Below, in pieces: positions 2,338 through 64,000 of a DNA stretch of 64,000 nt. The stretch lies in the sequence record OR062943.1. One strand, given 5' to 3'. The notes under the pieces are model-generated. The model did not search any database. It was not told where the DNA came from and saw only the letters and a program-made list of their open reading frames with translations. Within the stretch, counting starts at the first letter, position 1, and each line of letters begins with the position of its first letter. The position numbers and the translations under genes were made by a program. Source of the DNA: Escherichia phage 241Ecol014PP.

Positions 2338-4935
2338 ATGCGTATTCAACATAACATTGATAACGTATTTCAGATGATTGAGGGGCACAGGAAGTGCCTC
2401 GATAACAACACAGGTATTACCAACACCCCTACACAAAATAAGCTAGTAAACCCTGATGGTCTTATAGCTGCAGGGTGGGCAGGTAATAAGATAAATAATG
2501 ATTGGGCAATGCATGAGTCCCAAGCTGTGTTGATTCTGGGATACATTGAAGCATACAGGGCATCGAAAAGCGATTTCTATCTGGATAGGGCAAAAGATGC
2601 TTGGGAAGCTTACAATAGTCATCTTCTTGGTGCATATGCTGTAGAAAGTAAAATGCAAAGATTGTCCCACTACCCTCTATCCACAGACGGGGTTCCATCA
2701 CATGGTGGGTTTAAAGATGTGGTGGTGTCTTTTACCAATGGTAGAGGAAAAATCCCAGCTGGATCTCCGACATGGGGGGAATACCTGGACAAGGCATTCC
2801 AAGCGTATAACGGTGTGTTAGGAAGAAACACTGTAGACTCTGATGTTTACGGTGGCACAGATGCTAACCCAGATTGGACAACATCCGGATTAAGTTGGTG
2901 GGTTGAGTGGTACATAGCATGGGATGGTAACCGCTATTGGGCTAACGGTAGCATAGCCGACAGTGGTCATACGTCTGTAGAGTTCGGCACAATCCAATTA
3001 CAAGATAAGGGTGTTACAGGCAGCCACAAGGTGACCTATTGTGTAAGATTACCTCAAGAGCAGGGTGGATCGGTGATACCTGCAGGATCCCCTGTAATTG
3101 TAAATCCTATAAACGTGGTTGCAGATAATCAAGCCCCGGAGTTGGACGGGGAAGAGATGTGGTGTGACGCTTGTTATCAACTCTACACCTTGACAGGTGA
3201 GGAAAAGTATTACACCGCGTTTGAACAGTCTTACAACAAGTTGCTTAATTTCAGTGATATAAACGCCTACGACAAACTGTTTAGAAAGACCACGTTGATT
3301 AAGGCACCGTTCACAGATGGTACTTGTCTTGTTGCAGGAACAGTTCCTGTCATGAGCAGGGACAGTGACGGGTATATCAATTTTAGAATGAACGCACGCC
3401 AGCCTTGCGAAATAATTCAAAAAGGGACTACATACAAAATAGGCAGAGATGCTGAAATTGTTATGAATTTCGGAGGAGAAGGTGTTCTGTTCCAGCCGCA
3501 TTTCATCCTTAATGATGGCAACAATAACAAAAAACAGTACAGGATAGGTGTCCCTTTTGGAGGTGCAGAGGTAACAGAAATAGTTGCCAAGGTTACTGAT
3601 TTCGTAGAGGTAGTTGGTAAAGACGGTAATCCGTATCTCTTACCTAAAGAGGAAAACATTGCCGTAAGCGGTGGTGCTAGTGTTAGTATGCAGTATGATA
3701 CCGACATTTACAACCACTCTGACAACTTCACCCGTTGTAATATAGCAAGAGGTAAAGTAACTTTCAATTTTGGAAGAGAGATTTCTTTAAACTCAGTAAC
3801 TTATCGATCAGATGATGAGATGGTAAGGGTCAAATTTCTTGACAAAGACAGGTGGTTATGGTATGCTGATCTATATGCCACTAATGGACAATGGATAACA
3901 GAAACTCTTACTCTAGGAGATTTCAAACTAGATCCGACACAGCCTCATCACACCGAAGAAGAGATTAAACCTTTCTTTGCTAATCCTAAGGGGCTCACCT
4001 CTGTAGATTTCAGCCTAAGCGACAGGCAGATAGGTAATGGCTTGTTTGATCTGTATTGCGTCAACACACTGCCGCAATTTTATATTGCAGATAGGGATGC
4101 TTATCTAATCTGGTTTAGCGTATGGATGGCAAGCAAGACAGAATCAACCGCTAAGGTTGGCGATTGCTATGTCAGAAACTACAAGCAAGGTGCATACAGG
4201 CACACACCCGGTGTGTTCCCTGCCGGAAAGGTGATAGATAAGGAAAACTATCTCTTGGAGGAAAGGCCAAATTGGCCCTACCCTGGCATGCAATACCCAG
4301 CAGTCTACTGCATGGGTGCAGAAAACATAGATCGCCATAGATTGTCAAATACAATAGGCTTTCTGTATGACGCTCAAGTCTGGTATAACAATACATTTAA
4401 GACAGAAGGTCCAGTTGCCTCGCGTTATGTATGGCAGAGAGGCAATGAAGGGTTGACTGGTTGGTGGGAGATGGTAGATAACTCTAAACTACAGTCAAGA
4501 TCTTTTGTTGCTGCGTGCCGCACAATATATGAGCTCAAGAAACATAAAGAACCTGTTGATGAAAGACTATTCCTGTTCTGCCAGAAATGGGCATGGTTCC
4601 TCAACAGATTCCAGTCATCTCATTCAGGAAATCTGCCTACAGACTTTAACACCTCTGGGGGATACTCTTATCAAGACAGAGGGGACAGGATGTGGGTGGT
4701 AGGTGAATGGCTTGCAGGTTGCTGCTGGCTAGGTCTGTGCGGGTATTCAGAGACAATACCTCAAATAGATATTGTTGTAGAAGCCTGTGTGAAGCTACTG
4801 CAAAAGCACCACTTCATTAATGGGGATAATATTTTAAACGGCTGCTGGGCAGTTTCTGATCCGGTTGGCTATCACTCTGGCGAAATCCTTCGCGGTCTGG
4901 GCCTTTATGCTCAATACCGTGGATTGTACCTTTAA
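2338..4935 (+). CDS. large tail-associated protein, possible glycoside hydrolase/depolymerase
   Basis: 865 aa, Trp/Tyr-rich; ATG 2 nt after upstream stop; enzymatic assignment speculative. Confidence 0.35.
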   Translation: MRIQHNIDNVFQMIEGHRKCLDNNTGITNTPTQNKLVNPDGLIAAGWAGNKINNDWAMHESQAVLILGYIEAYRASKSDFYLDRAKDAWEAYNSHLLGAYAVESKMQRLSHYPLSTDGVPSHGGFKDVVVSFTNGRGKIPAGSPTWGEYLDKAFQAYNGVLGRNTVDSDVYGGTDANPDWTTSGLSWWVEWYIAWDGNRYWANGSIADSGHTSVEFGTIQLQDKGVTGSHKVTYCVRLPQEQGGSVIPAGSPVIVNPINVVADNQAPELDGEEMWCDACYQLYTLTGEEKYYTAFEQSYNKLLNFSDINAYDKLFRKTTLIKAPFTDGTCLVAGTVPVMSRDSDGYINFRMNARQPCEIIQKGTTYKIGRDAEIVMNFGGEGVLFQPHFILNDGNNNKKQYRIGVPFGGAEVTEIVAKVTDFVEVVGKDGNPYLLPKEENIAVSGGASVSMQYDTDIYNHSDNFTRCNIARGKVTFNFGREISLNSVTYRSDDEMVRVKFLDKDRWLWYADLYATNGQWITETLTLGDFKLDPTQPHHTEEEIKPFFANPKGLTSVDFSLSDRQIGNGLFDLYCVNTLPQFYIADRDAYLIWFSVWMASKTESTAKVGDCYVRNYKQGAYRHTPGVFPAGKVIDKENYLLEERPNWPYPGMQYPAVYCMGAENIDRHRLSNTIGFLYDAQVWYNNTFKTEGPVASRYVWQRGNEGLTGWWEMVDNSKLQSRSFVAACRTIYELKKHKEPVDERLFLFCQKWAWFLNRFQSSHSGNLPTDFNTSGGYSYQDRGDRMWVVGEWLAGCCWLGLCGYSETIPQIDIVVEACVKLLQKHHFINGDNILNGCWAVSDPVGYHSGEILRGLGLYAQYRGLYL

Positions 4936-33950: not shown

Positions 33951-35411
33951 TTACTTGGCGTACTCGATTAATTCCACAGTTTTCCCAAAGCTAGGGATAT
34001 AATTTTTATTATACCCTTCAGTGAGAACCCATAAAGTATCGTACTTTTTCCACTTATTGTCAACAGCCTTTTGTTCAAAGTTATGCTCAAAGTATAGGTC
34101 GGTCAGGACGATGACATCTTTTGCATTCGGTATGTTGGCATCCAGATACTCGAACACGCAAGCAGCTGTTGTGCCCCATGTTGAGTGGACCTCATAGTTG
34201 ATCATCTCATCTATGTTACCGCGAGTGTATACTTTGACCTCTCCAACCTCGGTTGACCAACAGAACATCGTAACCTTAAACTCTTTATACAGATTGCACA
34301 ATCCGGTGATTTCATTGAACATTTTCTTTAAAGTTCTTTGAGATATCGAGCCAGAAACGTCTAAAGCTACAACAATATCTATAGTGTTTTCAGGATTACG
34401 ACCGGGAACAATAACGTGCTGGTTCTTGTTTATAGCCCCAACTTTTCGCATTGTGCTGGTCAAAGAACCAGATCGGCGACCAGGTTTTCTGTAGGTCAGT
34501 TCAGCCTTTCGTTTAGACAACATGCGTTGCTTAATAATGTCTATATAGTTGATTACAGGCTTACCTCTGTTCTTGACAAACTCACGCACCGCCTCAGGGC
34601 AACGACCTCCGGAAGCTTGCATTGCTGCCTCCAGCATGTCACCAGAGTCCTGCATGGCCTGATCTTTATCAGATTGGCTGATTACAGGTTGTGGCTGATC
34701 ATATCCCAGAGCCTTTCCAAGATCATCACTGGTGCCACCGTTCCCACTCATGTGATCATCGGTTTGTCGCTTATCCCCTTGAGAGTTCTCACCTTTACCG
34801 CTCTTACTTTTACCGTTATTCTGATCTCTTTGCTTATCAAGAACTGCATAGACGTTCTCAGCAATCCACCCATGAAACTTCATGTCGCAGTAGCAGCTGG
34901 CTAAGAAGCCAAAAGGCTTACCTTTCACAAACGTAGTGCTTTTCCCCTTCGGGAAGAAAACACAAGGGGGCTTGCTAAAGTCAACCACAAGACCTGTGTT
35001 GATAACGTGATCACAAGCAATATTGAACAGTTCCGGCTCAAAGCTTTTGCCACGGACCAGGTGATCACAGATAATATGCCCCACCTCATGTGACAGAAGG
35101 AAAGCCACCTCTTTCACAGATTTGGGGGAATAGAAAACTTCAGCCATCTCAAACTGCTCGCCAGTTAGAGAGGCCTTAAGAATAGCCTTGCGTTCATCAG
35201 CCAACCCCATAATGAACTCAGGACTGTAATAGATGCGTTTATGGTCGGTTGCCATGGTGGAGCACCATGTGTGGTTTTCTACGAACTGTAACCCTGACAG
35301 CAGTGTGCCATAAAACGGCAGCTTTTCAAGGAGATACATACGTGCAGCCTGTAACATTCTCAGGGCATCATCTTTCTGTGAGGCAATGATTTCTGAACTT
35401 CTGCTATCCAT
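33951..35411 (-). CDS. putative metallopeptidase (HExxH) + von Willebrand factor A domain protein (MoxR/CobS-partner type)
   Basis: Start taken as ATG at 35411 (GGAG 5 nt upstream; track start 35432 lies in a hairpin); HEVGHIICDH motif; VWA-like VVALDVSGSISQ... Confidence 0.6.
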   Translation of the reverse strand: MDSRSSEIIASQKDDALRMLQAARMYLLEKLPFYGTLLSGLQFVENHTWCSTMATDHKRIYYSPEFIMGLADERKAILKASLTGEQFEMAEVFYSPKSVKEVAFLLSHEVGHIICDHLVRGKSFEPELFNIACDHVINTGLVVDFSKPPCVFFPKGKSTTFVKGKPFGFLASCYCDMKFHGWIAENVYAVLDKQRDQNNGKSKSGKGENSQGDKRQTDDHMSGNGGTSDDLGKALGYDQPQPVISQSDKDQAMQDSGDMLEAAMQASGGRCPEAVREFVKNRGKPVINYIDIIKQRMLSKRKAELTYRKPGRRSGSLTSTMRKVGAINKNQHVIVPGRNPENTIDIVVALDVSGSISQRTLKKMFNEITGLCNLYKEFKVTMFCWSTEVGEVKVYTRGNIDEMINYEVHSTWGTTAACVFEYLDANIPNAKDVIVLTDLYFEHNFEQKAVDNKWKKYDTLWVLTEGYNKNYIPSFGKTVELIEYAK

Positions 35412-35424
35412 TAAAACTCCAGAA

Positions 35425-35442
35425 GGGGCCATTGGCCCCTGT
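35425..35442 (-). terminator. intergenic GC hairpin, possible weak terminator/processing site
   Basis: GGGGCC-attg-GGCCCC; near-identical to stem of terminator at 29483-29518; flanking T run weak on minus strand. Confidence 0.3.
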
Positions 35443-35444
35443 TA

Positions 35445-36422
35445 TTATTTAACGTGTTTGAAAATACCTGCCAACTCGGTCATTGTCATGCGGGTGGTCT
35501 TCATAAGATCTGTCATAGCTTTCTCCATAATTGGGGATACTACCATAAAGTTTCCTTTAGTGAAACCTTTATTCCAGTCGGTCACTAACAGGGGTTTAAG
35601 TCCAGCTCCGAGACGTTCACCAGTTAAAGCACAGCATTTGCGAATATACAAACTCTTAAATTGGCTGAACGACAGATCAACCTTCATACCTGCATCGTAG
35701 AACGTTTGACAATAGAAAGTGTAAGCCTTAGCAACCTCAACATCATCAGGCAGTGCAGGAACCTCTTCTGCAATCTCCTCTTCGACCTCCTGAGGCTCTT
35801 TTTCCTCTTCAGAGTTCTGTTCTTCAATTTCTTCTGTCACAGTTTCGTTTACGATGTCTGAAATGTGTTTGTTGGCTGCACGATCAGCCATGAAATTTTT
35901 AAAGTCCTGCATTGGTGACATATCTTCTTCCTCTTCGTCAAAAAGTGCTAGTTTATCTTCTTCTGTCCCGTATTGCAAGATGAAATCTTCAAAAGTATAA
36001 TCACCTTTCAATTTCTCCATACGCTCTTCGCTCAGGTGGAGCATCATCTGCTGGACAATTTTTCGATCAGTTTCGTCTTTAATCAAGACTGCAGTCTTTT
36101 TATCTACCAGACAGTCCTTCAGAGCGTTGCACCTCAACCCTACCACACAACAATTATCAATTGCGTAAGGACCTTCATCATCTATCCGCTCCAGAGATGG
36201 GTAGAAAGGATTTCCCAGTCCGTTTTCATCTGTGTGCGTGTCGAAAGGTATAAGGGTATAGTCGCATACCCCTTCTCCTAAAAGTTTTTTACCAAATAGG
36301 AGGTATTCTTCCCACGACAGTTCGAACTCTATATCTCGTTTCCGTGCATTATTCTTTTTGCGTCTATATTTTTTGAGCAGGCGCTCTAACTCTTCTGTTG
36401 TATAATATTTTTCAAGATTCAT
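35445..36422 (-). CDS. protein with two degenerate HNH-like repeats separated by an acidic linker
   Basis: Start uncertain (36422 ATG downstream of predicted promoter, or 36485/36488); repeats ...SLERIDDEGPYAIDNCCVVGLRCNALK and CALTGERL...LLVTDWNKGFTKGNFMVV...K; Glu-rich linker. Confidence 0.45.
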   Translation of the reverse strand: MNLEKYYTTEELERLLKKYRRKKNNARKRDIEFELSWEEYLLFGKKLLGEGVCDYTLIPFDTHTDENGLGNPFYPSLERIDDEGPYAIDNCCVVGLRCNALKDCLVDKKTAVLIKDETDRKIVQQMMLHLSEERMEKLKGDYTFEDFILQYGTEEDKLALFDEEEEDMSPMQDFKNFMADRAANKHISDIVNETVTEEIEEQNSEEEKEPQEVEEEIAEEVPALPDDVEVAKAYTFYCQTFYDAGMKVDLSFSQFKSLYIRKCCALTGERLGAGLKPLLVTDWNKGFTKGNFMVVSPIMEKAMTDLMKTTRMTMTELAGIFKHVK

Positions 36423-36453
36423 GAGTTGTCTCTCGTGCTCTGTAAGTGAAGAA

Positions 36454-36482
36454 ATCGTATCAATTGTCTCAACAGATGTCAA
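36454..36482 (-). promoter_or_regulatory. leftward promoter TTGACA-N17-TACGAT
   Basis: Minus-strand TTGACA = revcomp of 36477-36482; TACGAT = revcomp of 36454-36459. Confidence 0.45.
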
Positions 36483-36495
36483 CATCAAGAACGTG

Positions 36496-36524
36496 TTGAC
36501 TTTACTCTAAATCTCCGATATAGT
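36496..36524 (+). promoter_or_regulatory. rightward promoter TTGACT-N17-TATAGT
   Basis: TTGACT 36496-36501, spacer 17, TATAGT 36519-36524; 40 nt upstream of ORF 36565. Confidence 0.6.
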
Positions 36525-36564
36525 GCACCCATTCGAAAGAAAACCAACATAGGAGCACTCACTC

Positions 36565-37464
36565 ATGGCAAATCTTAACAGTTTTAGTACTCGGTGGCAA
36601 CAGGATATAACAACCAATCTCTCGGCTGGAGACATTCTTTCTGCAATTTACGAGGCTTTAGATGCTAAAGCTACTTCAAAAGCGGTTTGTACCAACCCCC
36701 TAATCCCTGTAGTGATGAAGGTGATTGAGCGTAGATTGGTATCTGGGTCTGATAAGTGGACATATTTAGATAATGAAGGACACACCTATTCCAATGGGTA
36801 TGTCGATATAAAAGTAGAATACGCGGTATCATACCGCCGGAGCGGTTCTGTAACTTTCAACTTCTCTGGAGGTTTTCGATCTCTGGCTACCTCACCTTTT
36901 GTTTCCTCAGAGGAGAAGTATGAGCTGCCATTTCTTTGGATGATGGCTAACGCGACAGGAAAAACCCCCGTTAGCATCCGAGTAGAATACAACTACAACG
37001 GATCTAGTAAGATCTATGCCGAAAGTGTCTCAGCAAGTTTTTATTTTGTGATGGGGGATGGAATCCTCAAACATATAAAGATGTGTGATATGCATGATGT
37101 TATAAATGAAGTGACTGATAAGAATGTTCTAGTGAAAGACCTCAACAATTTTTATACACCCGGAGACTATTACGTCAGCCGTCCACTGTGCATCTTTAAT
37201 GCCGCACATCCTCTAGGTGAGTATTTGATCGCCAATAGCGATATTGCCAATAACCGCTTCGAGGTAGCAAGAGTTCAGAATGAGGTATTGACATCTTGTA
37301 AGAGCGGTGATAAGTTTACCGAAGAAGAGATGGGTGTTTTAGAAATGATGGGATATAAGTGTAGCCTTTGGGTAGATGAGGTGTTCAATGATTGCATCTA
37401 TGGACAGGATATTTACCCATTAAAGAAGTATACTGATTCCAGTTTAATTTACGCGGAGATTTGA
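36565..37464 (+). CDS. hypothetical protein (first gene of rightward operon)
   Basis: 299 aa; RBS AGGAG. Confidence 0.5.
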   Translation: MANLNSFSTRWQQDITTNLSAGDILSAIYEALDAKATSKAVCTNPLIPVVMKVIERRLVSGSDKWTYLDNEGHTYSNGYVDIKVEYAVSYRRSGSVTFNFSGGFRSLATSPFVSSEEKYELPFLWMMANATGKTPVSIRVEYNYNGSSKIYAESVSASFYFVMGDGILKHIKMCDMHDVINEVTDKNVLVKDLNNFYTPGDYYVSRPLCIFNAAHPLGEYLIANSDIANNRFEVARVQNEVLTSCKSGDKFTEEEMGVLEMMGYKCSLWVDEVFNDCIYGQDIYPLKKYTDSSLIYAEI

Positions 37465-50284: not shown

Positions 50285-53200
50285 ATGAGCATGTATAGCT
50301 TCGATTTTGAGGCCTCCGGGCTTTTGGAAGACCCAGATCTTTATTACCACTGCGGCCTGTTTAAAGAGCTGAATAAGAACCGTTTTATGCTGTTCCTCCC
50401 TCTAAATGACCGCACACACTACTCCGAGGAGGATATAGAGAAGGCTAAGAACTTCATTCTGGCAAAGAAAACTCTTTATAAAGATTTTGAAGTTCGCATA
50501 GCAGATTTTTCGGAGTTGGAAGGTTGGCTTACAGGCAATTCCGACTGGTCACCAACAGCTTTGAACTGCCATAACTGCTACAGTTATGACTTTATGCTGA
50601 TGGAGAAATTATCCGGTATTCATTTTGATATGTTCCGTGATCCTAAATGCATGGGTACTATCAACGATCACCAGGTTAACCTGTTCGATACGTTGGCGAT
50701 GAGCCGAATCTTGTGGCCTGATCGCCCTTTACCAAAAGGTTGTCCGGACTCTGTATTCAACCCGGTTACTAAGAAAATGCAGCCTGTTGGTGCCCACGGC
50801 CTTATGGCATGGGGCTACGCCCTTGGTAACCAGAAAGTTCAAATTGATGACTGGCGTGATCTTCCGTTGTGGAAGTATGTGGATCGTGTATTCGAGGACG
50901 TTATCATCCAGGAGCTGCTCTGGAAAGAGCTGGTAGCGGAATCAAAAGGTGTATTCTACGGCAAATCTGACATGCAGAACTTTATGTACGATCCTGCCAA
51001 AGAGAAGCCGAAAGGGTTCAAGAAGATCACCTGGAAGAACGCATTACGCCGGGGTATGCTGCAGCACTTCCTGATGGAGCTGCAGGCCCGTCAGGGTGTA
51101 TACTTCGACATAGATGGAGCTATTGCTTTACGTGACCGTTGCGATGCGTGGATGAAAGAGATCGCTGATCGTGTTGAACCTCAACTTCCTTTAAAAGAGT
51201 TGTCAATGTCTCAGCGGCCCAAGTTCCCTGAAAAGCCGTTTAACCAAGATGGGACAATCTCCAATAATGGTTGGAAATGGTTAAAAGATAAGCTTGGCTA
51301 TCCTGTGGACATGAGTGCTTTAGAGTTCAAAGCCCCGCCTAAGCGAGCATTTACCTCCACAGGAGATGTCAGCAAGATGGGGATAAAATGGTGTGAAGAG
51401 ATGGGCTGCAAAGACCCCGATAAGATGGCTGATTTCTTGAGAGGCTATATTAAGGGCACTTCCACACCACACCCTTTACCTAAAGAGCTGATGGATCAGG
51501 CGATAAGTGATCTACAGCAGAAGCGAATGCCGGACTGCAAGATACCTATGAAAATCAGCAATCAGGACGACATTAAGCGATACCTGATCAGTGCTGGTTG
51601 GCTTCCGACAATGTGGAGAACTAAGGATGTAACTAAAGACAGCAAGAAGAAAGCTCTACCTGATGCAGATGTTGATGCACGAGTATATGCATATATGGAC
51701 GAGCTTTTAGAGTCAGAGTATTGTGATCTGATTATCAACTTCTGGAACAAAACTGATGCTAAGTTCCAGACAACCGTGCACAAGTTCCGAAGCTTTCCTA
51801 ACTCCGAAAGGATTAAAAAGGAAGTGTTCGGGAAAATACGTAGAAAAGCCAGAGCACTTATTACTTCTCCGCAGCTGAAAGATACGTTTGGACACCTATG
51901 CCCAAATCTTGAAAAATTGAACGGAGAGATGGCTAAAGATATCGTCTTGTGGTTATCATTGCGAAACCGCAGATCGGTCCTTGATCCAATCAAGGAGGAT
52001 AAGGTTGATACTGGTCTTCTTAATCACCCACGTTTGAAGATTGACCATAAGCTTCCTGCTAAAAGTTCTGGGTTAACAAACACTTCCCGACAGAAACACA
52101 GTATTTGTGCAAACATGCCTAAACCATCTCCTAAAGTGGTTATGGGTAAAGAGATGCGTAGTCTGTGGGGTGTTCCTCCAGGATACTTTGAGATCGGTAT
52201 TGACGGGTCCAACTTAGAGCAGCTTATCGGGGCTTGGGGTGCCTTTGAGTTCGACAACGGCCTGTATTATGATGTTGTAAGTAACGGCGATGCACACTGT
52301 TATTCAGGAGATACACAAATTCTCACGGAGAAAGGGTGGGTGAGGTTTGAAGATCTTGATCCGGGAACACAAGTGTTCCAGTACGATCACAACACCTCGT
52401 CGATGAACCTTGTTACTCCATTAAATTACGTTAAGCGTAGTTATTGTGGGGATATGTATCATTTCCACAACAGCAGTGTGGATTTTATGGTTACAGATCA
52501 ACACAGGATGCTGACCGTGGATCACAGAAGCAATAAATTGTTTGAAGATTTGGCAAAAGACCTGAAAGCAGGTAAAGGGTCTAATTCAGGAAGAAGGTTT
52601 ATCCATGCGGCAGAGTTTTATGGGAATACAACCTTATCTCCTGCCCAGATTAATTTGCTTATTGCTATTCACGATGATGGGCACTTGCATACAAATAAGG
52701 ACGGCAGCATCGTGTGCAGGATTCAGGTCGGGAAGGGCAGAAAAGTTGCAACGCTTTTAGATACTTTTTCTGCTCTAAGCCTTAGTTATGTAGAGCAGAG
52801 CGGGAAAACCACAAAAGGGGGCTTACTGGCGAGAAGGTTCCAATTCCACGTTCCGTCCTGGGTATTTGAGTTTTTGGACAGCAATAAGGATTTCACCTAC
52901 AACCTGATGGACCTTGATAAAGAATCTAAAAACCTGTTTATAGCTTCTTTATCTAACTGGGACGGATGGGTATCTTCCGAAGGTGGAAAAGTTGCCTACT
53001 ACTCTCAGTCCGAGTGCAGGAAGAAATCTGTAGAGGTTGTGTCTGCGCTGGCTACTCAGTGTGGTTTACGGAATAATACGGTGGCGATTCACAAAAAAGG
53101 TCGTTCCGTACAGCACAGAATCACGATTGGTAGCAAACAGAGAGCAGGGTTGCTGACACTATCTAAAGAGTCTGTCGAGGTGAGTGGTTCTTTGGTTTAT

Positions 53201-53677
53201 TGCGTTACCGTCCCTTCTGGAGCAATCATTGTGAGAAGGAATGGTAAAGTGGCAGTGTGCGGTAACTGTAATAACGCCAAAGCTTACTCTTCTGTAGCAG
53301 GCAAGGAGATTTCCCGTAACGATGGTAAGCCTGTCACGTATGGGGTTATGTACGGGGCACAAAAAGATAAAGTTGCAGATATGCTGGATATCTCCCCAGA
53401 GTTGGGGCAAAGGGTGATCGATGCACTTTGGGATGCCAACCCCGGTCTTAAGGGGCGCAAAGAGGATCTGGAGAAATTCTGGGAAGCAACAGGTAAGAAG
53501 TTTATCTACTCTTTTGATGGTCATGCTATCTGGACTCGATCTAAACACTCTTTACTTAATGCATACCAACAAAATGGTGGTGCATCGCTGTGTGACTTAG
53601 TTGGGATACTCATGCACCACCAAATGGTGAAGCGTGGGTGGTACGATGAAGGTGTTCGTCGTATTATTTATTACCAT
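50285..53677 (+). CDS. family A (T7-like) DNA polymerase, exon 1 (contains an in-frame intein)
   Basis: RBS AAGGAGAA; exo motif FDFEASG; motif A region IGIDGSNLEQL; after intein motif B KPVTYGVMYGA; ORF stops at 53683 before motif C, implying an intron. Confidence 0.8.
52298..53266 (+). mobile_element. intein (about 323 aa) with LAGLIDADG-type homing endonuclease domain, inserted between polymerase motifs A and B
   Basis: Begins CYSGDTQIL (block A) with MVTDQHRMLTVDH (block B, TxxH); ends ...VAVCGN followed by +1 Cys (CNNAKAY); internal LLIAIHDDGH and LFIASLSNWDGW motifs; host junction NGDAH/CNNAK parallels T7 NGDIHTKNQ. Confidence 0.7.
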
Positions 53678-53953
53678 AAATAACATTGTGGCTTCATAGA
53701 GTAATCTATGTCGAATAACCTCTTTAACTGCGGGAAGCCTAAACCTTATGGCAAGGTAATCCGCAACGAAGCGCTCAAAAGAGCGAACGCTCAGAGGCCA
53801 TTCCGAAAGGAAGTAGACCAGCAAGTGCGGTCGAAATGGGAGGATTCCTGTGGTTGCTTATCATAGGAATATGAGATGGTCCGATCCTACGTGAAAACGT
53901 ATGGCTATGCACGTAATGGTGCGGGGTAGCTTAACGACCTACCTGAACTATTG
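53678..53953 (+). mobile_element. ORF-less group I intron (276 nt) splitting the DNA polymerase gene just before motif C
   Basis: Exon 1 ends ...YYH (last nt U at 53677), exon 2 begins DEYQIQV at 53954 giving HDE motif C; intron last nt G at 53953; intron GUGG (53688-53691) can pair with exon CCAU (P1 with U.G); in-frame stops inside. Confidence 0.6.
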
Positions 53954-54307
53954 GATGAGTACCAAATTCAAGTCCCTGACACGCCTAAGTATAAGACTGT
54001 GTACACCTTCGACACAATTGAAGAACTGGAAGCATTTAAGGCAGAGCAGGAGGCCAAACTTCATGTGTTTGACGGTCATAAGTACAAAAAGGCACGCAAG
54101 GATGAGAACGGAAACGAAGTGGTTGACAGAGACGGAAACACGGTGTACGATCCTATCCTGAACGATGACGGAAAGCTTGAACTTATCTGGAGCCCTGTGG
54201 GTGAAATGGTGGTGCATTGCTTCTGGCAAGCTTCTAAAATGATGGGCGTCCCGTTCCAGATCACAGGTGAATACTTGTGTGGGGCTAATTGGGGTAGTTG
54301 CCATTGA
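53954..54307 (+). CDS. DNA polymerase exon 2 (motif C to C-terminal His)
   Basis: DEYQIQV...GEYLCGANWGSCH parallels T7 polymerase C-terminus HDEIQV...WAICH from memory. Confidence 0.7.
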   Translation, partial: DEYQIQVPDTPKYKTVYTFDTIEELEAFKAEQEAKLHVFDGHKYKKARKDENGNEVVDRDGNTVYDPILNDDGKLELIWSPVGEMVVHCFWQASKMMGVPFQITGEYLCGANWGSCH

Positions 54308-54327
54308 TCTGATAAGAGATATTTGCT

Positions 54328-54975
54328 ATGGAAGAATGGAGAAAACTGGTTGGCAGGGAGGCCAACTATGAAGTTAGCAGTAAAGGAAGGATTAAAAGGC
54401 TGTCTTACCTGAGGAAGTACAGTAACCAAACAGGTAAAGTTACTTTCAAAGCTGTCCCTGACAGGATTTTAAAAGGTAGCGTAGACAGTAGCGGTTACAT
54501 TCAAGTAAATGTAGATGGAAGATCGGAATTGCTTCACAGGTTAATTGCCGAGACCTTTCTAGAGCCTCCTTCAAAAGAGCTTGTAGAGGAATGTAAGGCA
54601 GCAGGGCTGGACTATGTGCCGATCAATCATAAAGACCATAACCGCCTAAACAATGCTGCTGACAACCTTGAATGGGCCTCGCCTTCAAAAAATGCACAAG
54701 ATGTGGACTACGACTACCATAAAACAAGAGGGGAAAGTTCATACTGTGCAAAACTTAAAGAGCGAGATGTTGACGAAATATTAAAGCTTTCCAAAACAGG
54801 TATGTCACAGCAAGCTATAGCAGATCTTTTCGGTGTTAATCAGATAACCATTTCCAATATCTTGACAGGTAGGAGTTGGGCATGGTACACTGGGATACCT
54901 AAAACCGCAAGGTGTAAAAACAAAAGGGGGAGATCCCCGAAAAGCATGTCTGAGCAAAATTTCTCTGTAAGCTGA
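54328..54975 (+). CDS. free-standing HNH homing endonuclease (NUMOD4-like N-terminus + HNH + C-terminal HTH)
   Basis: 215 aa; EEWRKLVGREANYEVSSKGRIKR; INHKDHNRLNNAADNLEWASPSKN; C-terminal MSQQAIADLFGVNQITISNIL. Confidence 0.75.
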   Translation: MEEWRKLVGREANYEVSSKGRIKRLSYLRKYSNQTGKVTFKAVPDRILKGSVDSSGYIQVNVDGRSELLHRLIAETFLEPPSKELVEECKAAGLDYVPINHKDHNRLNNAADNLEWASPSKNAQDVDYDYHKTRGESSYCAKLKERDVDEILKLSKTGMSQQAIADLFGVNQITISNILTGRSWAWYTGIPKTARCKNKRGRSPKSMSEQNFSVS

Positions 54976-59398: not shown

Positions 59399-59977
59399 AT
59401 GAAATGCAAACGTTGTGGAGAGGACAAGGAGGCCTCCGACTTCTACACCAGTAACAAATCAACGTGCAAAGAGTGTTGCAAGAAGGCCAGCAGGGAGGCT
59501 GACCAATTTGCTAAAGACTCTTCAGAAAAAGGTGTAATACGCGTGCTGTACAAGTCTCAAAAGTGCAACAGCAAGCAAAGAGGTCACCCTCCTCCGACTT
59601 ACACCAAAAAAGAGTTTAAGGAGTGGCTATACCTGAACGGTTACAAAGAGTTGTATGATCAGTGGGTAGCCAGCGGATACGACAAAAGGAAAAAGCCTTC
59701 TTGTGACAGGATAGATGATTTCAAAGGGTACTCTTTTGATAATATCCGTTTAACGACTTGGGGAGAAAATAAAGACAAGCAGACAGAAGATATTCTGTTA
59801 CATAGAAGCACCAGCGGTAGACGGTGCAAAAATGTAAGGAGGTTGGACATGAATGGTAACGTTCTTAAAGAATGGGTATCCCACAACTCTTGTAGCAGAG
59901 AAACCGGAATATATATTGGTTACTACATTCATGAAAAAATTCCAGCTCCAGATGGATACTTCTATGAATACTTTTAG
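59399..59977 (+). CDS. putative HNH-family endonuclease-like protein with N-terminal zinc finger
   Basis: 192 aa; CKRCGEDK...CKECC; degenerate HNH block SCDRIDDFKGYSFDNIRLTTWGEN. Confidence 0.4.
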   Translation: MKCKRCGEDKEASDFYTSNKSTCKECCKKASREADQFAKDSSEKGVIRVLYKSQKCNSKQRGHPPPTYTKKEFKEWLYLNGYKELYDQWVASGYDKRKKPSCDRIDDFKGYSFDNIRLTTWGENKDKQTEDILLHRSTSGRRCKNVRRLDMNGNVLKEWVSHNSCSRETGIYIGYYIHEKIPAPDGYFYEYF

Positions 59978-63191: not shown

Positions 63192-63514
63192 CAGAGATCA
63201 TCATTTCAACTGCAGGGTATGTATTCCTGACAATCCTTGCGCTGACTATTTTGGTGGTGGTATATGGGATTGTTATTCTCCCTATTCTTGAGACAATTAG
63301 TTTGTGTCGGTGTTGGAGAAAGGCTTACGGTCCACAGCCGTGGAAGGACTGGCCCCACCTGGTGCACATAGCGTTCTCTTATGCCTACGATCACTCTAGC
63401 AGTGCATGCATAACCGGATACCACGCCCACAATTGGAGATGGGAAGGGTTGAGGAAGTGGAATGTTACAAAGACTATACCTCTGCGCATGTACAAAGGAA
63501 AAAGGAGGGATTGA
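63188..63514 (+). CDS. small membrane protein
   Basis: 108 aa; N-terminal hydrophobic helices YVFLTILALTILVVVYGIVILPIL. Confidence 0.4.
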   Translation: MTEIIISTAGYVFLTILALTILVVVYGIVILPILETISLCRCWRKAYGPQPWKDWPHLVHIAFSYAYDHSSSACITGYHAHNWRWEGLRKWNVTKTIPLRMYKGKRRD

Positions 63515-64000
63515 TGGGAATACCTGTTAAAGACAGAAAAATATGTGGTCGTGGAGTAAACGATTTAAAAGACAAAGTCCCAATGTACCAATCTGTTAAT
63601 GGTAAGAGAGTACCAGAACCTCACTATGCTACATGGAAAGCATTATTCCAGAGGTGCTACGGCGATAACTCAAAGTACCATACAGGTTGTGAAGTTGTAG
63701 AAGATTGGTGGTTGTTCTCAGAATTCTGGAAATGGATGGATACACAAGAGTGGAAAAGAAACGCTAAGAAGTTCACTCTTGACAAAGATCTGAAAATCCC
63801 CGGAAACAGAATATACTCCCCAGAAACATGTATGTTTGCTCCACCACAAATAAACACCTTATTTGGCATAAGACAGGCAGCACGAGGGGATTTACCTTTG
63901 GGTGTGACACTTAGAAAAGATGTAAACAAGTACCTCGTGCATTGTCATCAAGATGGAAAAATTGTTCATGGTGGTCATTTCGCTGATCCGCAGATAGCAC
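63514..64000 (+). CDS. 5' part of an HNH/AP2-type endonuclease-like gene, truncated by window end
   Basis: ATG 63514 with RBS AGGAGG; hand-translated frame stays open to 64000; LDKDLKIPGNRIYSPETC (degenerate HNH_3-like) and LPLGVTLRKDVNKYLVHCHQDGKIVHGGHF (AP2-like). Confidence 0.4.
   Translation, partial: MGIPVKDRKICGRGVNDLKDKVPMYQSVNGKRVPEPHYATWKALFQRCYGDNSKYHTGCEVVEDWWLFSEFWKWMDTQEWKRNAKKFTLDKDLKIPGNRIYSPETCMFAPPQINTLFGIRQAARGDLPLGVTLRKDVNKYLVHCHQDGKIVHGGHFADPQIA

Follow-up and report, generated by a model that had tools for sequence, protein, structure and literature searches.

The 64,000 nucleotides of Escherichia phage 241Ecol014PP that were analysed (record OR062943.1; hereafter, the window) contain a pair of divergent sigma70-like promoters, and the first gene of the leftward operon that begins there, at positions 35445-36422, is the subject of this report. 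An earlier inspection of the sequence alone (the original prediction) called an open reading frame (ORF) at these positions, which is present (minus strand, 325 codons), and interpreted its product as a regulator, not a nuclease, built from two degenerate HNH-like repeats around a poly-Glu linker and derived from a homing endonuclease. The present analysis agrees that the protein consists of two domains derived from the HNH or His-Me finger fold around an acidic linker, but it places these domains with the restriction endonuclease PacI, finds that only the C-terminal copy is degenerate, and relates the protein to Srd of phage T4. It is probably a host-takeover factor in which an enzyme is joined to a dead partner, and not a nuclease-dead regulator. 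The gene family was already known, being widely but inconsistently annotated, and phage genes of the PacI-like HNH kind were pointed out earlier (PMC12724721). What appears to be undescribed in the literature that was searched is that the Srd proteins form a PacI-type family of His-Me fingers in which the tyrosine variant of the active site is fully conserved, that its common two-domain architecture is a tandem of an intact and a degenerate copy, and that the 'anti-sigma factor' of rV5 belongs to this family.

Many database records give the gene a longer start, 21-22 codons upstream (ATG 36485 or TTG 36488), for a product of 346 or 347 residues. The start at ATG 36422 is the better gene model, because the sigma70-like promoter of the leftward operon would fall inside the coding region of the longer form, the N-termini of all diverged homologues align within a few residues of M1 of the 325-residue form, and a Shine-Dalgarno-like GAGAGA precedes this ATG (Table 1). 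The gene lies directly behind the promoter, in keeping with the original prediction that it opens the leftward operon, and in Erwinia phage Hena1 the homologue (38% protein identity) is likewise the first gene at a divergent junction, with TTGACA-16-TGnCATAAT (11 of 12 matches) about 50 nucleotides upstream. The statistics of the promoter scan are not compelling by themselves (5 sites, with 2.7 +/- 1.6 expected). A literature search on early transcriptomics of Vequintavirus found nothing useful.

The -35 boxes of the two divergent promoters stand back-to-back and form a perfect inverted repeat, GTCAAC-N11-GTTGAC, at 36478-36500, which may be just the adjoining hexamers or may be an operator for a dimeric regulator. 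At the other end of the gene, between its stop codon and the next gene, is a GC-rich palindrome, AGGGGCCATTGGCCCCT, at 35424-35440; it extends into the DUF2201_N/VWA gene downstream, over its start codon (35432), has no clean T-run after it on the minus strand, and could form a hairpin influencing translational coupling. No DNA repeats were found by a search within 35300-36700, Rfam gave no match in or near the gene, and the plus-strand ORFs inside it are short and unsupported.

When Pfam was searched at E values of up to 10 with the whole protein and with both of its halves, neither HNH, HNH_3, AP2 nor any other credible family was found, and 146 relatives of the protein likewise yielded no HNH_3, AP2 or other meaningful family. 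This negative result is not a failure of the tool, since the same search detects HNH_3, together with NUMOD4 and HTH_23, in a homing endonuclease elsewhere in the window (54328-54975). The proposed assignment to the HNH_3 or AP2 families therefore has to be given up; the protein has neither a match to the HNH_3 profile (PF13392) nor a histidine at the motif position. NCBIfam and PADLOC searches returned nothing meaningful, and a single-sequence phmmer search of PDB returned only chance matches to antibodies. A profile of the 146 relatives, compared with 177,635 PDB sequences, had PacI (3LDY, E 7e-4) as its sole meaningful match, the family consensus 'PSlERIDdkkGYsrgNvvvVtkraNqlK' aligning over 'LGVDRSDSFEGYSPQNARLACFICNRIK' of PacI. 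The alignment of N-terminal domains (N-domains) matches residues 31-123 of PacI with a probability of 94.8% and E 5.6e-8 in hhalign. The alignment of C-terminal domains (C-domains) has no direct match to PacI, to which it is linked through the N-domain and through predicted structure. Both repeats are His-Me finger (HNH-fold) domains of the PacI type, with the beta-beta-alpha-metal fold and detectable similarity to PacI that define group 20 of the His-Me finger classification, and the HNH relationship from which the original prediction started is thereby upheld, through a different branch of the superfamily.

PacI (PDB 3LDY/3M7K), which that classification (Jablonska et al. 2017) places in group 20, is a restriction enzyme that cuts DNA sequence-specifically; it forms a homodimer, and each subunit has 142 residues and two structural zinc sites of the Cys4 type (PMC5714182; PMC4081073; PMC3384342). 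The window protein differs in uniting an intact and a degenerate copy in a single chain instead of forming a homodimer, and in having glutamate where PacI has aspartate at the metal-ligand position. The two Cys4 zinc sites are not kept: of their CxxC...CxxC ligands, C53 (conserved at 99% across the family) and C98 (specific to the lineage) are the only ones that align, with T56 and V95 in place of the others. The HNH_3 homing endonucleases of the I-HmuI type, such as the one at 54328-54975, have in common with the window protein the His-Me finger superfamily fold and a superficially similar motif, x-D-[HR]-I-D...N...N, but they possess a catalytic histidine and NUMOD or helix-turn-helix (HTH) DNA-binding modules, are detectable by Pfam and are mobile. 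None of this is true of the window protein, which has arginine at the position of the histidine and an invariant tyrosine eight residues past the acidic residue, and is encoded by a core gene.

The repeat is not visible pairwise, as BLASTP of the N-terminal half against the C-terminal half gives no significant alignment, but profiles make it evident. When 1.84 billion representative proteins were searched with a profile, 1,826 relatives were returned at E <=0.001, most of them 230-310 residues long and matched in two stretches, and 170 sequences yielded the domain alignments, one of 161 N-type domains (from representatives of clusters at 50% identity) and one of 107 C-type domains. Compared by hhalign, the N-domain and C-domain alignments match with a probability of 98.7% and E 2.5e-16 over 84 columns in one register. 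Both halves of the protein align by BLASTP to one segment of T4 Srd (residues 8-143 with Srd 4-133, E 1e-6; residues 249-295 with Srd 30-80, E 3e-4), and the hidden Markov model (HMM) of the C-domain matches the N-domain of T4 Srd at 2.5e-12. In the six-frame translation of the window, the N-domain and C-domain HMMs each cross-match the other's domain in register (E 0.058 and 0.0015). In some relatives (P0171-P0175, P0116, P0148, P0128 and others) the two tandem copies both belong to the N type, and there are relatives with D-R...Y...N...N kept in both copies. As judged from these alignments, the protein is an internal tandem duplication.

The linker between the copies is rich in glutamate (18 of 61 residues), as the original prediction implied, and predicted to be disordered, with a net charge of -18; 'poly-Glu' was an overstatement, the longest run being EEEE. 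Its length and sequence vary even among homologues from the Vequintavirinae, and the median linker charge across 94 two-domain relatives is only -2. Strong acidity of the linker is a feature of the lineage, not of the whole family.

PacI is exceptional among His-Me finger nucleases in that the general-base histidine is absent and replaced by a tyrosine of the omega loop, while a single metal ion is held by one aspartate and one asparagine (PMC5714182; PMC4081073; PMC3384342). The motif on which the original prediction was based, S/T-x-D/E-R-I-D...G-Y...N...K, is present in the N copy (PSLERIDDEGPYAIDNCCVVGLRCNALK), where E78, R79, Y86, N90, N99 and K102 align with D92, R93, Y100, N104, N113 and K116 of PacI (residue numbers of PacI counted by hand from the PDB alignment) with identical spacing (+1, +7, +4, +9, +3). 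Conservation at these six positions over 161 N-domains is 100% for the acidic residue (E 84%, D 16%), 99% for R, 100% for Y, 100% for the first N, 98% for the second N and 93% for K, and Y86 is the sole invariant column of the full-length alignment of 146 sequences. At the level of sequence, E78 and N99 correspond to the pair of metal ligands of PacI, and R79 and Y86 reproduce the combination of a missing histidine and a loop tyrosine. In the C copy (KPLLVTDWNKGFTKGNFMVVSPIMEKAM) the motif is largely erased: where the catalytic residues should stand it has L, V, F287, E300 and M303, which are not conserved family-wide, and F287 occupies the position of the tyrosine. Among structural residues, C264, T267, G268, D282 and N291 are kept, and the positions that are conserved in C-domains (A231, Y234, K256, K262, C264, T267, D282, N291) are structural or basic.

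Neither copy has a canonical catalytic histidine, as the original prediction correctly noted. The step from there to a dead nuclease is not justified for the N copy, though it is a reasonable one for the C copy, because the tyrosine-for-histidine active site of PacI is kept in the N copy only; the word 'degenerate' fits the C copy and not the N copy. Within a single chain, the decay of one copy affects exactly the catalytic positions while the other copy is spared, a contrast that speaks for selection on chemistry, beyond the fold alone. It is what would be expected if catalysis, or at the least a metal-dependent binding of substrate, were under selection in the N copy. Inactive His-Me fingers that have been reused for binding include the Smad MH1 domain and the nuclease-like domain of ENPP (PMC5714182), which resemble the C copy in having kept the fold after the loss of both the histidine and the equivalent tyrosine. 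They have no sequence relationship to the C copy, and here the dead domain shares its chain with an apparently intact paralogue.

Smad MH1, as an inactive His-Me finger that binds DNA, is also a precedent for the regulator of the original prediction, a non-catalytic nucleic-acid-binding protein both of whose domains would serve for DNA binding alone, at the divergent promoters for instance, and thus control early transcription. The C-domain, which is clearly degenerate yet conserved and basic, would suit such a protein, and the inverted repeat across both -35 boxes would suit its binding, although two back-to-back -35 boxes yield an inverted repeat anyway and Pfam recognises no HTH or other regulator signature. 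Pure binding also does not predict that the metal ligands and the catalytic tyrosine of the N-domain should be kept at 98-100% in very distant relatives when the degenerate copy has lost them. The role of regulator is not supported by the only characterised relative, T4 Srd, which acts on RNase E and host mRNA decay, and we consider this explanation improbable.

T4 Srd (gene srd, NP_049634, 248 residues) comes, like the window protein, from a large virulent coliphage, and srd is an early gene. Its N-terminal ~90 residues are homologous to the N-domain (BLASTP E 1e-6, 23% identity), with further support from the family HMM (1e-21), from hhalign (89.5%) and from the PHROG Srd families (2e-9 and 4e-6). 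Residues E64, R65, Y72, N76, N85 and R88 of Srd (counted by hand) form the E-R...Y...N...N...K/R constellation with identical spacing. The homology is not full-length: residues 100-248 of Srd have no significant HMM match, and the C-domain HMM matches only the N-domain of Srd, so that Srd has a single detectable copy of the domain and no Glu-rich linker, whereas the window protein has two copies and the linker. By eye, the C-terminus of Srd (residues ~200-248, AEMQYDMCDKIIQGVERYQNLSFIDKLKLKRGYPLNCSIFKLIRG; minus strand, 3040-3786 of the T4 sequence used) is reminiscent of the C-domain consensus (A-x-x-Y ... G ... L-[ST]-F-x-x-[FL]-K ... C) in its first half, after which it stops; it may be a truncated remnant of a second copy that the HMMs do not detect. 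Srd is described as binding the N-terminal catalytic half of RNase E and speeding the decay of host mRNA (PMC7430671; PMC4980113; PMC13232886), and is listed with two other phage effectors that act on the machinery of RNA decay in the host (PMC4980113). This function is established for T4 Srd alone. A literature search for a published link of Srd to HNH or PacI found none, which is not proof of absence.

The commonest database annotation follows another idea, that of an anti-sigma factor or sigma decoy that mimics or sequesters sigma70 or sigmaS. This annotation is inherited from T4 srd, whose record states 'similarity with rpoD' and 'postulated decoy of sigma factors RpoD and RpoS', and it persists in the PHROG names 'decoy of host sigma70' and 'Srd anti-sigma factor'; for T4 Srd itself, the label is a postulate from sequence inspection. 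The region that gave Srd its name has the PacI-type fold, neither Pfam nor NCBIfam finds a sigma or anti-sigma match in the window protein, and among 146 relatives there is one stray match to Sigma54_CBD (E 0.0016). The experimental studies assign Srd to RNase E and not to sigma (PMC7430671; PMC4980113; PMC13232886), which leaves the anti-sigma function very unlikely.

The 4 kb around the gene share ~97% DNA identity with the rV5-like coliphages (Vequintavirus), among them ECML-10, navn and rV5, and at least 80% of this query is covered in 116 of the 119 matching records. Homologues with 37-41% identity are found across the Vequintavirinae, in phages of Klebsiella, Salmonella, Cronobacter and Erwinia, with synteny kept. 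The gene at 35445-36422 is a conserved core gene of the rV5-like phages (Vequintavirinae), and it appears in databases under the names 'anti-sigma factor', 'HNH endonuclease', 'anti-termination protein' and 'hypothetical protein'. Sixteen unannotated GenBank records (MG0656xx) labelled as Campylobacter jejuni phages (C15, A12a, C7, C9 and others) are 93-98% identical to the rV5-like sequence; their host label looks doubtful and may be due to contamination or mislabelling.

This distribution bears on whether the gene might be a mobile, free-standing homing endonuclease gene that stands at the start of the operon by chance, a possibility that would accord with the HNH-type fold, with the name 'HNH endonuclease' in several records and with the abundance of homing elements in the window. 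Homing endonuclease genes are recognised by sporadic presence among close relatives, such as that of ORF 59399 of the window (51 records), but the gene at 35445-36422 is found in its place in essentially every relative, and its divergence, which follows that of the lineage, reaches 37% identity without loss of synteny. Pfam recognises no NUMOD, HTH or AP2 DNA-targeting module in its product. A core gene behind a host-type promoter, diverging with the phage lineage, fits a role in host takeover and speaks against a mobile endonuclease; the homing-endonuclease origin that had been suggested is not supported, and the idea of a mobile gene can hardly be credited.

The favoured reading, to which a probability of about 0.5 may be given, is that the protein is an early effector of the Srd family with a competent tyrosine-variant phosphodiesterase as its N-domain and a degenerate C-terminal partner, and that it acts on host mRNA decay with RNase E. 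The results establish the fold and its duplication, the pattern of residue conservation, homology to both Srd and PacI, the core status of the gene and its position behind the promoter; the catalysis, packing, substrate and link to RNase E that follow are inferred. Tandem duplication of a PacI-type His-Me finger domain would have given rise to a two-domain Srd-family protein, the gene for which would be transcribed by host RNA polymerase from the strong sigma70-like promoter as the first gene of a leftward early operon. The N copy is predicted to be a working one-metal phosphodiesterase in which E78 would be the acidic metal ligand, R79 would stand in the place of the histidine, Y86 would act as nucleophile or general base, N90 would be the structural asparagine and N99 the metal-ligand asparagine of the helix, with K102 completing the set. 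The C copy, which keeps the fold and a basic surface, is most likely a non-catalytic partner or substrate-binding half, and by analogy with the PacI homodimer, the two copies may pack as a pseudo-dimer within a single chain, with only one active site. To judge from its homology with T4 Srd, the protein most likely serves to redirect the nucleic-acid metabolism of the host as infection begins. More specifically, it is proposed that it would make host mRNA decay faster through or together with RNase E, its active site working on RNA or on a complex of RNA with RNase E.

A number of points weigh against this reading. T4 Srd is portrayed as activating RNase E through protein-protein interaction, a literature search found nothing that calls it an enzyme, and its effect is said, in work of 2015 by Qi and colleagues, to have required functional RNase E. 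The transfer of function from Srd is weak, since its C-terminal half is not detectably homologous to the C-domain and the N-domains are so distantly related. The match to PacI in the search of PDB sequences is borderline, the zinc sites of PacI are missing, and the conserved polar residues could serve to bind nucleic acid or metal without turnover. The AlphaFold2 (AF2) models are of moderate confidence, with a mean predicted local distance difference test score (pLDDT) of 68.9 and 65.6, and were built on alignments of seven sequences, and a Foldseek search of PDB returned nothing at E <=0.001 (best E 0.64), though the top matches were HNH domains.

The main rival to the favoured reading concerns the substrate: the protein may be a PacI-like DNA endonuclease or nickase that attacks host or competitor DNA early in infection, with the dead C-domain as a second DNA-binding half and without any RNase E connection. 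Among solved structures the closest, which is also the sole significant PDB sequence match, is, after all, a DNA restriction endonuclease, the same type of domain recurs in ORF 59399, which is sporadic and resembles a homing endonuclease, and one NCBI metagenome record names a 97%-identical protein (P0001) 'type II restriction endonuclease'. The PacI-like HNH genes of Skunavirus phages have also been classed as probable homing endonucleases (PMC12724721). However, T4 Srd as the only characterised member of the family has an RNA-decay phenotype and no DNA phenotype, and there is no evident self-protection of the phage genome. The zinc sites of PacI help to hold its DNA-binding architecture, and their loss from the window protein also speaks against a DNA-directed enzyme, which is a serious candidate but an unlikely one.

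The features of the gene and of other parts of the window are listed in Table 1.

Table 1. Positions of the features discussed, in the numbering of the 64,000-nucleotide window
Feature	Positions	Strand	Basis or details
Coding sequence of the 325-residue Srd-family protein	35445..36422	minus	ATG 36422, stop 35445-35447; phrog_3118 (its own PHROG) match 9e-110
N-terminal PacI-type His-Me finger domain, residues 1-112	36087..36422	minus	Basic N-terminal helix, 'RDIEFELS' strand, C53-x-Y-T motif, beta-beta-alpha core
Predicted catalytic core, residues 75-102, PSLERIDDEGPYAIDNCCVVGLRCNALK	36117..36200	minus	Alignment with PacI; conservation in 161 relatives
Conserved helical extension, residues 113-163, four predicted helices	35934..36086	minus	AF2 secondary structure; homologue alignment
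Glu-rich disordered linker, residues 164-224	35751..35933	minus	pLDDT <50; composition; variability among homologues
C-terminal degenerate copy of the fold, residues 225-325, basic (net +4)	35448..35750	minus	
Shine-Dalgarno-like GAGAGA, 6 nucleotides before ATG 36422	36429..36434	minus	Direct reading of the sequence
Leftward sigma70-like promoter, TTGACA-17-TGnTACGAT (extended -10 TG)	36454..36482	minus	10/12 matches
Rightward sigma70-like promoter, TTGACT-17-TATAGT, toward the ORF at 36565	36496..36524	plus	Promoter scan
Second operon gene, 493 residues: DUF2201_N putative metallopeptidase and VWA-like domain	33951..35432	minus	Pfam 5e-28 and 4e-11
1132-residue ORF	within 50285-54975	plus	Weak sub-threshold Pfam Hint_2, residues 672-706, E 8e-4, 20 bits against a cut-off of 28
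Group I intron, 3' of the 1132-residue ORF	53668..53903		Rfam RF00028, 64.7 bits
Canonical homing endonuclease, NUMOD4 + HNH_3 + HTH_23	54328..54975	plus	Pfam
192-residue protein, N-terminal CxxC...CxxC ribbon and PacI-type domain (ORF 59399)	59399..59977	plus	N-domain HMM 2e-7; phrog_1035 3e-32
ORF running off the end of the window (ORF 63514)	63514..64000	plus	PHROG HNH endonuclease families, phrog_953 1.5e-52

The original prediction saw degenerate blocks similar to those of the core gene in two other ORFs of the window. In ORF 59399, the domain is indeed the same, but its motif, PSCDRIDDFKGYSFDNIRLTTWGENKDK, is intact (D-R...Y...N...N..K). This ORF is found in 51 phage records, under the name 'endonuclease VII' or 'homing endonuclease', compared with 119 for the region of the gene at 35445-36422, and because of this sporadic distribution it is probably a free-standing homing endonuclease of the tyrosine-variant type. 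The resemblance of ORF 63514 to the core gene could not be confirmed, as neither Pfam nor the Srd/PacI-type N-domain HMM matches it. Its motif, FTLDKDL...NRIYSPETC...QIN, has no obvious histidine, and it may represent another His-less HNH lineage. A segment that looks AP2-like by eye, GVTLRKDVNKYLVH, follows the motif and has no profile match.

The second gene of the leftward operon encodes the DUF2201_N/VWA protein, and relatives of the phage carry a MoxR-type ATPase on the opposite arm; together these look like a phage-encoded MoxR/VWA pair. The region 50285-54975 is a dense cluster of selfish elements, in which the 1132-residue ORF looks by eye like an intein-containing DNA polymerase gene.

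The annotation of more than 100 phage records, which now read 'anti-sigma factor', 'anti-termination' or a generic 'HNH endonuclease', could be corrected on this evidence to a PacI-type His-Me finger tandem related to T4 Srd. The case also calls for general caution, in that an HNH domain without its histidine is not necessarily dead: in one protein, an intact tyrosine-variant copy and a truly degenerate copy stand together. The rV5-like phages are studied for biocontrol and therapy, and what their first early gene does therefore matters when these phages are assessed for the safety of such applications. For Srd, a nuclease fold with an intact tyrosine-variant active site at the core of the protein offers a testable lead on its stimulation of RNase E. 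It is conceivable, as a speculation that we put forward tentatively, that the whole Srd family including T4 Srd consists of tyrosine-dependent PacI-type phosphodiesterases, not of passive binders of RNase E, and that the dead duplicate of the rV5-type proteins is a built-in pseudo-dimer partner. If so, the 'stimulation' of RNase E would be the result of an enzymatic act, such as the endonucleolytic nicking of host RNA to make the 5'-monophosphate ends that RNase E prefers.

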